This document shows positions 2,061 to 23,468 of a stretch of 64,000 nt of DNA, one piece after another. Position numbers and translations under genes: made by a program. The stretch's first letter is position 1. Each line of letters starts with the position of its first letter. Source of the DNA: Schmidtea nova (Eukaryota); the NCBI GenBank assembly GCA_044892505.1, contig CM097882.1, forward strand, positions 477,524,001 to 477,588,000, given 5' to 3'. The notes below the pieces were generated by a model. The model saw only the letters and a list, made by a program, of their open reading frames with translations. It had not been told where the DNA came from and searched no databases.

Positions 2061-3233
2061 TTTATATTTGAGGATATTTTAGCAAGCATAAGTTAACAAA
2101 TGAATAGAGAATATTCATACACAAGCATTCAAAATATATTTTACAATTTTAATTTTCAATCATTCTTAAATATAAAATATTTACAGTGAAATCAATTTGT
2201 GAGGAGTTTTCAGCTGAGAAGTAAATATTTCAATGATTTTGTTGGGCCAAAACGCAATTTGTTTTAATAAAACGATAACCCCATAGGTAGAGAACGCGCA
2301 AAATTCCATTTTTAACCTTAGCTTCCATTAAAAATCCAACAATTAAGTGGAAAACACCAAAAGGTGAAGTGGAATCAAAACACATCAACCGGTAGACTAC
2401 GCGCTAACTGCGAATTTATAAATATTTTCACTAAAATCTCGAGAAAAATTAAAAGCAGAATGTTTGGAAGCTAGAATAGGCAAAAAACCCATGGAAAGTG
2501 CCCATAAAGAACAGAATTTTGTCATAAACCTTCAAGTGCAGAAAAATTAACACAATTCTAGAGGAAAATTGTGAATTTATCACAAAATTTCACATATAAC
2601 AATAGAAAGAATTAATATGGATCGAATATCATAAATTAAATCAAATCGAACAAAATTCGATTCAAACATAAAAATTTTGCATTAAAATAAATTATTTATA
2701 GTTTATAAAAAATTATTATACAAAAATATGGAATTAATTTTCGGAAAATCATTAGAATTAATTTAGAAAAAATTAAGAGAAAATTCTAGAACAATTTGTT
2801 TTATTGCACTACCGGGGATAGAGAAAATTTGATGGTATATATACCGCCATCAAAATGGCAGAATTCAGAATTTGTGAAAATTTTTCCGAAAGATTTTTTT
2901 TACTGATACAGAATTTGTGGTAACCAAAAATTTATTTAGAAGAATTTAAGAAGAATTTAGAAGAATTCGTTAATTTCGAAAATTTGCGAGGAAACGTAAG
3001 GGGTAATTTGCTTTTTAATATTATATATTTTTTTTTTGGGGATTGGAATGGTCGTCCATCATGCCTGACGATCATCCCATTCCTCATTCTTTGTTAATTT
3101 GTTATTTATTATTCTATTGACGTATATATTGTTATTATGAAATTATTAAAATATTAATTTTTGTTAAAATTTTCTTGTTATTATTATCATAATAAGACAT
3201 AAATTCCCAACTTAATGATTATTTTGCAAGCAG

Positions 3234-3419
3234 TTATTTGAATAAAATTATCGAAAATAAATAAAGAATTTTTTTTTGTTTTCCATATCTTCTGACGATC
3301 CGTCCAGCATTGCGTTGTGCGGATCTGTTAGTAGCCTGGGTGGATCGTTGTCTGATTGGTAATCGGCCAGCCCATATTTCCACTTTAAGGTGAGGCTCAT
3401 ACATCCAAATTCTCGTCAT
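3234..3419 (-). CDS. Putative small antisense ORF in the LTR (second copy 20690-20875)
   Basis: 61-aa ORF in a GC-elevated island. A consensus donor AAG|GTGAGT lies upstream on the same strand near 3606. The region is also retained in the diverged LTR at 62105-62285. No homology recognised. Confidence 0.25.
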   Translation of the reverse strand: MTRIWMYEPHLKVEIWAGRLPIRQRSTQATNRSAQRNAGRIVRRYGKQKKILYLFSIILFK

Positions 3420-4647
3420 CCCAACTGGGGAATCGTGGTTTGGCCAAGAGCAAGGTTTTGTTATACTAATGATTTTTATTATAATAGAGTATCATATTTT
3501 CTATTATCTACATAAGCAATTTCGTAATATAACATAACAATCTCTAACTCATGTCTTGAAATCTAAAATAGGAAATATTATTAATTAAAAAATCGACTCG
3601 TACTCACCTTCACCTTCGCACTCTCAAAAACGATCAGCTCATGAGAAAATGCAAGAAAAATGGATGCTAATGATGAAGAGAAAATTGTTCGAAATAATGC
3701 TCAAGTCTAGAATAATGCTCACGAAGTGAAATGAATTGTGAAACAAGTATTGATTGAATCTGAATTAAAACTCATTATGGTCTAAATAAGTTTTCCTGTG
3801 AATCTTGTTTTTCGAGAGCCTGAAATTCCTAAGTGAAGTGTCCCGAAAAATTCGCGTACACTTTGATTGGGAAATTCATGCTCAACAAAACCGAAATTTA
3901 CTTCACTTGATGTTAAAAATATTCGTTGGAAAATGTATAACTTATTTTATTTTATTTTTATTTTTTATTTAGCATATAAAATTTTTTAGATTAAATGCTT
4001 ATTTAGATTTCGAAATTTATGGATGAAAAATTTATTATTATGTGAATTTCGTTTCGATCAAAAAATAAAAATTTACTTTTTATTATATTGGAAAATTTTT
4101 ATAATGAATAATTGTGAACCAAAAATTCTCCGAATATTATTATGATATAAAAGATTTTGTCATTTTATAAAATTCCTAAGAATTTATAAATCGAAACTTA
4201 TATTGGAACCCATAAAAATTTTAAATCGAAAATATTATTAGTATATTGAAAATTTTATCATTTCAAAAAATCCAAAATTTCAAAATTCTATAGGAAAATT
4301 TTTTTTACTATATATACATATACTTAAAATATAAAAATTCGAATATAAAAATTCATATTATAAAAATTAGAAATGGTATTATTATATTATTAAAATTATA
4401 AAAAGCATTATAAAAATTTATAATATAAAAATTAGGAATTTTATTATTGTATTATTTTCATAAAATTATAAAACTAAAATTTATAAAAAGTATTATAAAA
4501 ATTTATAATATAAAAATTGGAAATTTTATTATTATATTACTTCATAAAAATTATAAATCTAAAGTTTATAAAAAGTATTAATATTATTATTATTTTAATA
4601 TAAAAATTATTATTATTATTTTAATTTTAAAAATATTTTATATAATT

Positions 4648-4678
<31 letters not shown>

Positions 4679-19695: not shown

Positions 19696-22100
19696 TGTTG
19701 GGCCAAAACGCAATTTGTTTTAATAAAACGATAACCCCATAGGTAGAGAACGCGCAAAATTCCATTTTTAACCTTAGCTTCCATTAAAAATCCAACAATT
19801 AAGTGGAAAACACCAAAAGGTGAAGTGGAATCAAAACACATCAACCGGTAGACTACGCGCTAACTGCGAATTTATAAATATTTTCACTAAAATCTCGAGA
19901 AAAATTAAAAGCAGAATGTTTGGAAGCTAGAATAGGCAAAAAACCCATGGAAAGTGCCCATAAAGAACAGAATTTTGTCATAAACCTTCAAGTGCAGAAA
20001 AATTAACACAATTCTAGAGGAAAATTGTGAATTTATCACAAAATTTCACATATAACAATAGAAAGAATTAATATGGATCGAATATCATAAATTAAATCAA
20101 ATCGAACAAAATTCGATTCAAACATAAAAATTTTGCATTAAAATAAATTATTTATAGTTTATAAAAAATTATTATACAAAAATATGGAATTAATTTTCGG
20201 AAAATCATTAGAATTAATTTAGAAAAAATTAAGAGAAAATTCTAGAACAATTTGTTTTATTGCACTACCGGGGATAGAGAAAATTTGATGGTATATATAC
20301 CGCCATCAAAATGGCAGAATTCAGAATTTGTGAAAATTTTTCCGAAAGATTTTTTTTACTGATACAGAATTTGTGGTAACCAAAAATTTATTTAGAAGAA
20401 TTTAAGAAGAATTTAGAAGAATTCGTTAATTTCGAAAATTTGCGAGGAAACGTAAGGGGTAATTTGCTTTTTAATATTATATATTTTTTTTTTGGGGATT
20501 GGAATGGTCGTCCATCATGCCTGACGATCATCCCATTCCTCATTCTTTGTTAATTTGTTATTTATTATTCTATTGACGTATATATTGTTATTATGAAATT
20601 ATTAAAATATTAATTTTTGTTAAAATTTTCTTGTTATTATTATCATAATAAGACATAAATTTCCAACTTAATGATTATTTTGCAAGCAGTTATTTGAATA
20701 AAATTATCGAAAATAAATAAAGAATTTTTTTTTGTTTTCCATATCTTCTGACGATCCGTCCAGCATTGCGTTGTGCGGATCTGTTAGTAGCCTGGGTGGA
20801 TCGTTGTCTGATTGGTAATCGGCCAGCCCATATTTCCACTTTAAGGTGAGGCTCATACATCCAAATTCTCGTCATCCCAACTGGGGAATCGTGGTTTGGC
20901 CAAGAGCAAGGTTTTGTTATACTAATGATTTTTATTATAATAGAGTATCATATTTTCTATTATCTACATAAGCAATTTCGTAATATAACATAACAATCTC
21001 TAACTCATGTCTTGAAATCTAAAATAGGAAATATTATTAATTAAAAAATCGACTCGTACTCACCTTCACCTTCGCACTCTCAAAAACGATCAGCTCATGA
21101 GAAAATGCAAGAAAAATGGATGCTAATGATGAAGAGAAAATTGTTCGAAATAATGCTCAAGTCTAGAATAATGCTCACGAAGTGAAATGAATTGTGAAAC
21201 AAGTATTGATTGAATCTGAATTAAAACTCATTATGGTCTAAATAAGTTTTCCTGTGAATCTTGTTTTTCGAGAGCCTGAAATTCCTAAGTGAAGTGTCCC
21301 GAAAAATTCGCGTACACTTTGATTGGGAAATTCATGCTCAACAAAACCGAAATTTACTTCACTTGATGTTAAAAATATTCGTTGGAAAATGTATAACTTA
21401 TTTTATTTTATTTTTATTTTTTATTTAGCATATAAAATTTTTTAGATTAAATGCTTATTTAGATTTCGAAATTTATGGATGAAAAATTTATTATTATGTG
21501 AATTTCGTTTCGATCAAAAAATAAAAATTTACTTTTTATTATATTGGAAAATTTTTATAATGAATAATTGTGAACCAAAAATTCTCCGAATATTATTATG
21601 ATATAAAAGATTTTGTCATTTTATAAAATTCCTAAGAATTTATAAATCGAAACTTATATTGGAACCCATAAAAATTTTAAATCGAAAATATTATTAGTAT
21701 ATTGAAAATTTTATCATTTCAAAAAATCCAAAATTTCAAAATTCTATAGGAAAATTTTTTTTACTATATATACATATACTTAAAATATAAAAATTCGAAT
21801 ATAAAAATTCATATTATAAAAATTAGAAATGGTATTATTATATTATTAAAATTATAAAAAGCATTATAAAAATTTATAATATAAAAATTAGGAATTTTAT
21901 TATTGTATTATTTTCATAAAATTATAAAACTAAAATTTATAAAAAGTATTATAAAAATTTATAATATAAAAATTGGAAATTTTATTATTATATTACTTCA
22001 TAAAAATTATAAATCTAAAGTTTATAAAAAGTATTAATATTATTATTATTTTAATATAAAAATTATTATTATTATTTTAATTTTAAAAATATTTTATATA

Positions 22101-22138
<38 letters not shown>

Positions 22139-23468
22139 ATATATATATATTATAAATACCCCCACGATATCTCAAAAATCATAATGCATCCCTATTTGCA
22201 AAAAATTACATCCATTTCATTCAATAGCATTTTCCATACTAATACACAAGCAACATATATTTAAAATACAATATACACACATACACAGTATCATTTATTA
22301 GTATTCAATAGTTATATACACACAAGCAAACAATACTGAAAATTCTACACAGTTATGTTAGTCGGCAACATACATCCAGAAAAACCATACAAAAATTTCT
22401 ATCATTCAAACCTACCATATAAAATTGAATGTACCCAGCCAAATAAGCCATTTACATTACAGTTTATTTTTAATTTACAAAAATTTCGTAAAAATAATAA
22501 AAACTCAAACGAAAAAGAGTAAAGACGAAAAAATTTTTATCTAAAGATTTATTGATAAAAATTCAGTTTGAGGGATAAGAGTCCCCGGCAAGGATTTTTC
22601 CGGTTTGCAGTACTTGAAGGGCCAGTTCTAACATATTCTCTTCAAGAAATTTTCTAAAATTGTTCAAAATAAATTATAATTCTGAAATAATCAAAATTTT
22701 ACTTGGTTGGTAGAGCGGGCTATTTTGCTTCGTAGAAGCTCGAGATCTAATTGGATTGACCCATTTGGGGTGGGAGAATTTTCCTCTGGCTTCGTAGTTT
22801 CTGGGAAGATCCATTTCTTGTTGATCTGAACTATAGAAATCGTTAATTAATCAATTTAGTAAAAAATTCAGAAAATTACCTTTAAAATTAATATAATTTT
22901 TAAATTGAGTAAATTTGTCCTTTTGATTAAATTAGCAATTTTAAACAAACGGAAATTTTATTTTTATTATTTCTAAACTGGATTAAATTACGGTAATAAT
23001 TAAAATTTTTCTTAAATTTCAAATGCAGATTAAAAATTTTTCTATAAAAATATAATATTTTATGTATTAATTATCATAAAATGCAATATTGGTAAAATAT
23101 AGGGTTATATTAGTGTTTTGATGCTCGGAATAATTTATTTGGATGTAATAATGAATTTATAGTTATGTAGAGTGTTTATGTTGAATTTCCGACGAAAATT
23201 TTTATTGAAAGCTTATAGATAAATCATGTAAGAAGGGACAAAATGGGCAAGAGACCTTCTATCGGTAGCCCTTGGACCCAGGAGATATTCGGTCAATCAT
23301 AGTTTCGTATTGACGACGCTCACTGATTGCGAATACCCACCCACTTGTTACAGTACCAACGTTACATAGTGACGGGTAACAAGATGGTAGTTTAAATGTT
23401 TTATGTGTTGAGTTGTTGATGAGAGCCATAGAAACGTCAAGGTCATATTGACGATCAACAACCCACCA
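19696..23468 (+). repeat. 3' LTR (3773 bp)
   Basis: TG...CA termini. The offset to the 5' LTR is 17456 before and 17460 after the (TA)n tract. Followed by the TSD ATTT. Confidence 0.95.

Follow-up and report, generated by a model that had tools for sequence, protein, structure and literature searches.

A pol-less Burro-type retroelement family of Schmidtea nova and a candidate helper family that shares its LTRs

Analysis of a 64,000-nucleotide stretch of the Schmidtea nova genome (GenBank assembly GCA_044892505.1, contig CM097882.1, positions 477,524,001 to 477,588,000; referred to as the window) led to an element of ~21 kb that, judged by its sequence, is one copy of an abundant Burro-type Ty3/Gypsy family devoid of pol, here called the satellite. 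For packaging, reverse transcription and integration the satellite probably depends on a rarer complete family (the helper), whose LTR, leader and 3' UTR it shares. The copy in the window, a damaged member of its subfamily, has lost the TRAF and IAP genes and has nonetheless spread recently. The attributes of Burro elements, namely giant size, multi-kb LTRs and MATH, BIR, ankyrin, SUMO-like and coiled-coil domains, are found in the satellite family and the helper taken together; TRAF and BIR are deleted in the window copy.

Architecture and gene content of the window element

The two LTRs (Table 1) differ at two places, by a single substitution and by a 4-nt indel within a (TA)n run, and the PBS is complementary over 19 nt to the 3' end of the host tRNA-Pro(UGG), added CCA included. 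Coordinates, LTR comparison and tRNA match thus bear out what the original prediction, made from the letters of the window, had proposed for the ends of the element: near-identical LTRs of ~3.77 kb with TG/CA ends, a 4-bp TSD and a tRNA-Pro PBS. No purine run precedes the 3' LTR; a conserved motif is found at this place in all tRNA-Pro families examined, and the motif of the window element also occurs in the other tRNA-Pro Burro-like families.

Table 1. Features of the window element (positions in the window)
Feature	Position	Strand	Remark
Left TSD (4 bp, ATTT)	2236..2239		Sequence repeated on the right side
5' LTR, 3,769 bp, TG...CA	2240..6008	+	Common to the autonomous helper family
PBS complementary to host tRNA-Pro(UGG)	6019..6037	+	10 nt past the LTR end
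Long leader	6038..10900	+	Helper counterpart 76-94% identical (nt) by segment
RING ORF, 160 aa, IAP-like C3HC4 RING	8584..9066	+	Also in the helper leader
21-nt tandem repeat	10057..10482		Source of apparent antisense ORFs
ORF1, first part: post-Gag segment, SUMO/UBL-like region, retropepsin (DTG intact)	11215..12600	+
ORF1, remainder: linker, ankyrin repeats, FN3-like tail	12601..14325	+	Homologue of the helper polyprotein region that follows integrase
Truncated orf211 fused to the last IAP codons	14477..14926	+	3,087-nt deletion
Coiled-coil ORF, 515 aa	15061..16608	+	pN/pS 0.10
Coiled-coil ORF, 191 aa	16871..17446	+	pN/pS 0.13
Single-pass membrane protein, 274 aa if intact	17543..18365	+	Frameshifted in the window copy; pN/pS 0.20
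Single-pass membrane protein, 264 aa	18570..19364	+	pN/pS 0.61, indistinguishable from neutral
3' UTR	19384..19695	+	Common to the helper; last part is the conserved atypical PPT-region motif
3' LTR, 3,773 bp	19696..23468	+	LTR comparison
Right TSD (4 bp, ATTT)	23469..23472		Matches the left side

The long leader is likely to hold packaging and splicing signals. Its RING ORF is 91% identical at the amino acid level in the leader of one helper copy and broken in three others. In most copies of the family ORF1 is a single ORF of ~1,040-1,060 aa joining the UBL-protease and ankyrin-FN3 parts, whereas in the window copy two stops sever the remainder from the first part, and an acceptor-like site upstream of ORF1 is not present there. 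The predicted retropepsin, with its DTG motif, scores above the cut-off of PF00077. Among the roughly eight sense ORFs originally counted, the UBL-protease and ankyrin-FN3 frames are the two halves of this one stop-split ORF; the two supposed type-I glycoproteins are single-pass membrane proteins, one of them with a frameshift in this copy. The long antisense ORFs at 9907-10562 do not stand as genes, being the 21-nt tandem repeat in translation, and their Pfam matches were dismissed as coiled-coil noise. The deletion in the window copy took out the TRAF gene and the BIR-RING IAP gene. In copies that keep them, the satellite IAP is a 389-aa ORF with both BIR and RING, and this product of many copies is predicted to be a cell-death blocker; a neurexin-like gene is also named beside the IAP and membrane genes of the system. 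The C-terminal half of the 515-aa coiled-coil protein has a homologue among the ORFs of complete Burro-like families. The 264-aa membrane protein matched no family and its top score in the ESM Atlas was not above 0.84.

Absence of replication genes

Using Gag, Env, RT, RNase H (RH) and integrase (IN) of a complete relative as tblastn queries, we obtained no match in the window element at E<=1. The element therefore lacks not only RT, RNase H and integrase, as had been claimed, but Gag and Env as well. Autonomous Ty3/Gypsy elements carry Gag, RT, RNase H and integrase in the order PR-RT-RH-IN; the helper has this set and the window element does not. An in-frame Env between Gag and PR in the giant polyprotein is present in the helper and in family E and absent from the satellite. 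The concern that RT and IN might be hidden in the run of N at 6342-6557 is dispelled, since pol would not fit into 216 nt, and a sibling almost identical to the window element has 216 nt (6% GC) at this position. The notion of cargo taken up in place of pol, on the other hand, is not upheld, the interior being mostly inherited Burro content: ankyrin and FN3 follow the integrase in the helper polyprotein, and complete Burro-like families carry homologues of the RING, TRAF and coiled-coil genes, findings that together mark the interior as an old deletion derivative.

Abundance of the satellite family

The genome contains 1,853 exact LTR-PBS junctions, and diagnostic 22-mers count 1,773 satellite against 212 helper matches, a ratio of about 8:1. 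The fear of a one-off capture, raised with the original prediction, is thereby removed. A census took in the first 40 junction copies on the plus strand of C1, a sample that spans the initial 36 Mb of a single contig and contains one tandem array of three; 28 of these copies are of the pol-less window type, five of the helper type and one is a helper deletion, with six uninformative. The frames at the best 150 protease matches are all <=1,080 aa; eight of these matches show the broken ORF1 of the window copy (489-aa frame), a variant that is hence multicopy, and 12 of 23 full-length ORF1 copies are intact. TRAF and IAP are both absent from 11 of the 28 satellite copies, through at least two deletions, and are thus dispensable for spread. 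The deletions are not splice products, as neither junction is GT-AG, and acceptor-like sites were not demonstrated for TRAF and IAP.

TSDs of 4 bp flank all eight satellite and all three helper copies analysed. LTR pairs are 99.3-100% identical in 17 of 20 census copies, with within-copy ranges of 99.3-100% for the satellite and 99.7-100% for the helper, and by this measure the activity periods of the two families overlap.

A candidate helper family

The longer relative with RT-RH-IN and the same termini that the original prediction proposed to look for was found. This candidate helper (~212 elements by 22-mer count) has the LTR, leader and 3' UTR of the satellite and encodes a polyprotein of ~5,000 aa in the order Gag-MATH-Env-PR-RT-RH-IN-ankyrin-FN3, in which Gag, CCHC, MATH, the fusion glycoprotein PF24664, PR, RT, RH, IN, ankyrin and FN3 were all detected. 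It is open over 4,992-5,006 aa in three of four fully read copies. In all 24 copies examined it runs directly into the shared 3' UTR, without any downstream ORF of the satellite, and the gene content of the two families is complementary, as the satellite copies, as far as fetched, lack pol in 28 of 28 cases. Neither BCL2 nor dUTPase was detected in the helper, and the sequence fetched for the helper and for families B-E contains no IAP; a search for dUTPase returned one locus. The candidate supports the earlier view of a non-autonomous giant element with an LTR-sharing helper, mobilisation itself being what we infer from it.

Other candidates were rejected. Three LTR-to-LTR spacings without RT were traced to a Maverick-like insertion (34.6 kb), an internal duplication (27.6 kb) and nested insertions (31.9 kb), and a Bcl-2-bearing Gypsy family of 14 kb has a different LTR and PBS and no DNA or protein similarity.

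Evidence for exchange of cis regions and for selection on the satellite ORFs

Satellite and helper agree in LTR termini, PBS, PPT region and TSD length, and their cis regions are 81-98% identical. Over the 3' UTR-U3 segment identity between the families (93.3%) equals that within them (94.0% and 92.1%). In trees of the cis regions (18 sequences each, with groups assigned by gene content ahead of the AU test) satellite and helper copies interleave, and helper monophyly is rejected (p-AU 2.2e-6 and 9.8e-4). The shared coding parts, in contrast, are only 50-69% identical in amino acids, with pS of 0.59-0.69, although the satellite groups with the helper in the PR and UBL-region trees. As the coding parts are old and yet the cis regions are similar and interleaved, these data point to repeated exchange of LTR and cis regions between satellite and helper.

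Eight of nine satellite ORFs (12-26 copies each) have pN/pS of 0.10-0.31, as against 0.50-0.83 in a neutral simulation, in pairwise estimates that count shared branches many times; the ninth, the 264-aa membrane ORF, exhibits no clear constraint. Substitution patterns thus indicate that most satellite ORFs are under purifying selection.

Proposed mechanism and alternative explanations

In the mechanism we propose, one LTR promoter would drive both satellite and helper RNAs, and these would come together in particles made by the helper; template switching there would continually swap the cis regions. The satellite protease would cut its own mini-polyprotein of ~1,050 aa, and the downstream ORFs would be translated from spliced subgenomic RNAs. 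IAP, TRAF, RING, ankyrin and membrane proteins would exert their effects in the host cell that harbours replication, and this action would maintain selection on the satellite products. Three other complete Burro-like families with the same PBS and short end motifs could also mobilise the satellite. More tentatively, and with somewhat greater doubt than assent on our part, an ancestral Burro1-like endogenous virus may have split in two in the manner of a bipartite virus, with capsid, envelope and enzymes on one element and the host-control set (IAP, TRAF, ubiquitin-ligase, coiled-coil and membrane proteins) on the other, coupled by exchange of one LTR-leader module. About a thousand copies would then supply the anti-apoptotic gene, and host, helper and satellite would form a three-way mutualism.

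The chances are about even that the satellite is instead a pure parasite that only exploits the helper, with retained genes that are self-serving or decaying relics and bring no benefit to helper or host. The mobilisation mechanism would be the same and only the beneficiary would differ. The numerical excess of the satellite, the successful amplification of subfamilies whose ORF1 is broken or from which TRAF and IAP are missing, and a helper that looks young and active without the downstream genes all agree with this reading; constraint on eight ORFs among copies that without exception have the pol-less junction excludes simple decay, while being compatible with a self-serving function. An unsampled complete element with pol and all accessory genes, from which the satellite copies would be recent internal deletions with inherited low pN/pS, is quite improbable. 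For S. mediterranea a single element, Burro1, is described as combining pol with Smc, MATH, BIR and ankyrin motifs (PMC6431247), the genome searches scored only the best 150 candidates, and family C looks like a recent pol deletion, its protease being near that of the RT-bearing family F. However, a long frame accompanies none of these best 150 protease matches, RT and downstream genes never occur together in the 34 informative junction copies or the 24 helper copies, and synonymous sites are close to saturation against the nearest complete family.

It is also unlikely that the other tRNA-Pro Burro-like families (B, D, E and F), rather than the LTR-sharing one, mainly mobilise the satellite. 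They have in common with it the PBS, the first 8-9 nt of the LTR, a pre-PPT motif, 4-bp TSDs and similar TRAF, coiled-coil and membrane ORFs, and number 657 pattern matches including derivatives, but these are short motifs only, whereas the helper shares kilobases and exchanges cis regions with the satellite, which implies co-packaging. Finally, the probability that an assembly artefact or segmental duplication created false LTR identity, a worry of the original prediction, is negligible. One longer copy does contain an internal duplication across a run of N, and tandem arrays with shared LTRs exist, but the TSDs are private to each dispersed copy (11 of 11), and LTRs are 85-99% identical between copies compared with 99.3-100% within them. 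Mobilisation by the LTR-sharing helper is thus the reading we retain.

Significance and comparison with known systems

If the satellite averages 20 kb, the family amounts to ~35 Mb, near 3% of the genome by the 22-mer estimate, and annotation based on RT would miss or misfile it, as it has neither RT nor integrase. Purifying selection can evidently maintain a large set of accessory genes on a non-autonomous element, something that the usual accounts of defective elements do not foresee. With IAP and replication machinery on separate elements and predicted transcripts, the two could be knocked down separately, and subfamilies that naturally lack the IAP would serve as controls.

Acutely transforming defective retroviruses and VL30 are replication-defective and helper-dependent and share LTR and packaging signals with their helpers, and the former carry cell-modulating genes. 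These are short-lived single-gene captures or non-coding, whereas the satellite is a stable multigene lineage of ~1,800 germline copies on which purifying selection acts.

Burro elements and plant helper/satellite pairs are already known. The planarian giant Ty3/Gypsy element Burro1/GYPSM1 is described with an ORF1 of 4,873 aa (PMC6431247), which the helper polyprotein fits in size and order. According to this description, the likeness extends to a Gag with three CCHC knuckles, MATH, SUMO-like, an in-frame fusion-type Env and PR-RT-RH-IN, with ankyrin, Smc-like coiled coil and BIR also in the vocabulary (PMC6431247). Burro1, compared here by description only, unites enzymes and accessory motifs on one element (PMC6431247), whereas in S. 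nova they are distributed over two families with a common LTR, of which the enzyme-less one is ~8 times commoner. Compared with representative proteins, ORF1 of the satellite matched almost only generic ankyrin proteins, apart from one match in the protease region. The IAP of Burro1, B-IAP, is reported to protect planarian stem cells against apoptosis mediated by caspases (Lee et al. 2026, as cited in PMC13465017). Like it, the satellite IAP is a BIR and RING gene on a planarian giant retroelement, but one that resides on the pol-less partner and not in the helper. In the literature we found no account of a partner of Burro that is non-autonomous, though Grohme 2018, Jurka 2007 or Lee 2026 might contain one, and none of enzymes and host-modulating genes split between two giant partners.

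In grasses, non-autonomous endogenous pararetroviruses with diverged coding parts have common noncoding regulatory parts that are homogenised by region-specific recombination, and commensal and mutualistic pairs were proposed among them (PMC5491270). As portrayed there, these are plant viruses without an LTR-integrase cycle. Comparable, too, are the long-lived autonomous/non-autonomous LTR partners of wheat, RLG_Wilma/Sabrina/WHAM and RLC_Angela (PMC9744471) and RLG_Cereba/Quinta (PMC11302176), for which LTR transfer between subfamilies and semi-autonomous partners that keep CDS in a "cooperative complex" are reported (PMC9744471, PMC11302176). By these accounts the wheat partners keep Gag or unannotated CDS; the satellite, in contrast, has lost Gag and retains a protease together with as many as ten accessory ORFs, whose domains include apoptosis and ubiquitin types, on an element of 21-25 kb, in an animal host and beside an Env-bearing helper.

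The window element is a damaged copy of a pol-less family

A single substitution and a 4-nt indel within a (TA)n run are all that separates the two LTRs, and ATTT lies on both flanks, so that the near-identical, TG/CA-ended LTRs and the 4-bp TSD of the original prediction hold, as does its tRNA-Pro primer binding site (PBS). Pfam detects RING, retropepsin and ankyrin repeats in the element, together with a weak SUMO-like match under the cut-off; between the LTRs it finds neither RT nor RNase H nor integrase, and tblastn queries taken from a complete relative (Gag, Env, RT, RH, IN) gave no match in the element at E<=1, which bears out the predicted combination of a protease with absent replication enzymes. 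The 216-N stretch, suspected of hiding sequence, has no room for pol, and the antisense ORFs are the product of a 21-nt tandem repeat. A 3,087-nt deletion has removed TRAF and IAP from the window copy; two stops split ORF1, the family's mini-polyprotein, and one membrane ORF is frameshifted. This variant is multicopy (8 of 150 rows among the best 150 protease matches).

Features of the window element and its surroundings (window positions)
Feature	Position	Strand	Remarks
Whole element	2240-23468		
5' LTR	2240-6008		Starts TG, finishes CA
LTR-to-PBS spacer	6009-6018		10 nt in satellite and helper, 6 nt in other tRNA-Pro families
PBS	6019-6037		Complementary to 19 nt of host tRNA, tRNA-Pro(UGG) by ARAGORN
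3' LTR	19696-23468		Starts TG, finishes CA
Decayed Gypsy RT and RNase H fragments	1198-2030	-	Outside the element, adjoining its left side; opposite strand
Uninterrupted 831-aa frame	48373-50868	+	Ankyrin-like start, several hydrophobic segments; TRP channel-like by eye

A complete family, the probable helper, shares the termini of the satellite

The original prediction proposed counting full-length copies through the LTR and looking for a longer relative with RT-RH-IN and the same termini. Exact matches to the 30-nt LTR-PBS junction number 1,853 in the host genome, and diagnostic 22-mers give lower bounds of at least 1,773 for the pol-less family (the satellite) and at least 212 for a complete one (the candidate helper, below simply the helper). 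The AT-rich, 1.25-Gb genome and its Burro-type elements suggest a planarian-like flatworm as host. Forty plus-strand rows, the earliest within the first 100 listed junctions and all from contig C1, were classed, 20 of them read across 27 kb and 20 across 10 kb: 28 proved window-type and 5 helper-type, one was a helper with an internal deletion, and 6 were truncated or gave no information. The helper is the longer relative sought: it joins the satellite's LTR ends, PBS, leader and 3' UTR to a single polyprotein of Gag (three CCHC knuckles), MATH, fusion glycoprotein, PR, RT, RH, IN, ankyrin, FN3 and a C-terminal hydrophobic segment, open across 4,992-5,006 aa in three of four fully read copies. 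In 24 helper copies (these four and 20 chosen among the first 100 of 212 RT matches) the shared 3' UTR, 84-97% identical to that of the window, comes right after the polyprotein, and none of the satellite's downstream genes is present. A 4-bp TSD flanks 3/3 helper and 8/8 satellite copies, and LTR pairs are 99.3-100% identical (up to 1.5 kb compared) in the 17 copies, out of 20, for which a partner LTR was located.

The best 150 protease matches are 94-100% identical, every frame being at most 1,080 aa. Fuller satellite copies carry, in order, RING, ORF1 (~1,040-1,060 aa: post-Gag segment, UBL region, protease, ankyrin, FN3-like), in some cases a LamG-EGF membrane protein (scoring 0.95 in the Atlas against EGF/LamG and neurexin-like clusters), orf211, TRAF (RING-zinc finger-MATH), IAP (BIR-RING), and two coiled-coil and two membrane ORFs. 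The intronless, single-pass LamG-EGF ORF (L015:3561-5009; L numbers denote stretches of the same genome) occurs in 2 of 28 sampled satellites and is bordered by a short direct repeat, which would allow its loss by template switching. ORF1 of one copy holds a ~13-kb element (L002:2350 to L003:6668; G000:C1:131.934-131.948 Mb) with terminal inverted repeats, a 6-bp TSD, an integrase with chromodomain and a 1,426-aa ORF, which from these features we take to be Maverick/Polinton-like. The tRNA-Pro(UGG) genes are tandemly arrayed in a 308-nt unit at G000:C1:459.6 Mb (L038-L040), and the tRNA-Pro motif has 899 matches genome-wide.

An old coding split beside shared cis regions

ORF1 keeps a single frame and matches, in the same order, non-adjacent stretches of the helper polyprotein, with Gag, MATH, Env and RT-RH-IN left out. 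Coding identity between the two is 50-69% (amino acids), with pS of 0.59-0.69, near saturation. Midpoint-rooted trees of the protease and the UBL region, the latter carrying a long-branch warning, unite satellite and helper against families B-F, other Burro-like groups with the same PBS (SH-aLRT 100).

The 3' UTR-U3, LTR end and leader average 90-93% identity between satellite and helper, equal to within-family identity; two satellites have a divergent cis type in common with one helper and with the deleted helper, and tests on the cis regions reject monophyly of the helper copies (p-AU 2.2e-6 and 9.8e-4, 18 rows each). Immediately 3' of RING the helper copies group together, and exchange therefore weakens toward the coding block. 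Repeated template switching between co-packaged RNAs would be the simplest reading of the shared cis regions, a sharing to which gene conversion among genomic copies may alternatively have led.

Satellite cargo and its conservation

A further 657 tRNA-Pro PBS sites have other LTR ends, and ten of them were sampled. Families B, D and E are complete and Burro-like, with RING upstream and TRAF, coiled-coil and membrane ORFs downstream, the latter 24-47% identical to their satellite counterparts; these homologs indicate that the satellite cargo is mostly inherited Burro content no longer on the helper. BIR was not found in sequence read from the tRNA-Pro families or the helper, and a 399-aa satellite frame holds most BIR matches (best 150 of 1,295 candidates). 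Family C (L049-L050, L077-L079) encodes Gag, Env, PR and a pair of ankyrin blocks within a single long frame and lacks RT-RH-IN, a loss of pol independent of the satellite's; the protease closely resembles that of the RT-bearing family F. Family A (L041-L042, L073; ~8 kb, Gag only, 1.7-kb LTRs, same PBS, similar end motifs) is a third grade of non-autonomous partner. One or two ORFs of 160-230 aa lie within the LTRs of families B-E (L061, L064, L070, L068), and the two that were searched gave no Pfam match. A multicopy 14-kb Gypsy family (L022-L023, L028-L029, L034-L035) has 1.1-kb LTRs, another PBS and a ~3,070-aa Gag-Bcl2-Env-PR-RT-RH-IN frame.

With two tandem duplicates set aside, 26 satellite copies give pairwise pN/pS values of 0.23 for RING, 0.31 for ORF1, 0.20 for orf211, 0.13 for TRAF, 0.21 for IAP, 0.10 and 0.13 for the coiled-coil ORFs, 0.20 and 0.61 for the membrane ORFs and, from two copies only, 0.32 for LamG-EGF; neutral simulation with the observed transition bias gives 0.50-0.83. 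Because all ORF1 copies have the pol-less junction in common, this constraint would have arisen after pol was lost, barring a parent that the sample missed. Both TRAF and IAP are present in 16 of 28 copies (in one further copy TRAF lies at the edge of the sequence read) and missing in 11 through at least two separate deletions, while full-length ORF1 is intact in 12 of 23; these absences and broken frames count against a strict requirement.

Proposed mechanism and known systems

A T-rich AG within ~20 nt 5' of the ATG, conserved in the copies shown, precedes 8 of 10 satellite ORFs, the other two being TRAF, with none, and IAP, which makes subgenomic RNAs through cis-splicing or spliced-leader trans-splicing likely. 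In the proposed cycle the shared LTR would drive transcription, helper Gag would package the RNA via the shared leader, tRNA-Pro would prime, and helper enzymes would carry out reverse transcription and integration; ORF1 would be processed by its own protease, and the IAP, TRAF and RING products would modulate apoptosis and ubiquitin signalling within the cell hosting replication, so that any benefit would be tied to the expressed copy. Helper-dependent mobilisation is very probable on these data; that helper or host really benefits from satellite products is rather doubtful.

Burro elements carrying these domains are already known (PMC6431247), and PMC13465017 reports a Burro1 IAP with a stem-cell-protective role. 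The literature searched, which did not include three primary papers, contained no description of a non-autonomous Burro partner. Helper/non-autonomous pairs are likewise known among grass pararetroviruses (PMC5491270), and in wheat (PMC9744471, PMC11302176) such pairs are long-lived and exchange LTRs.
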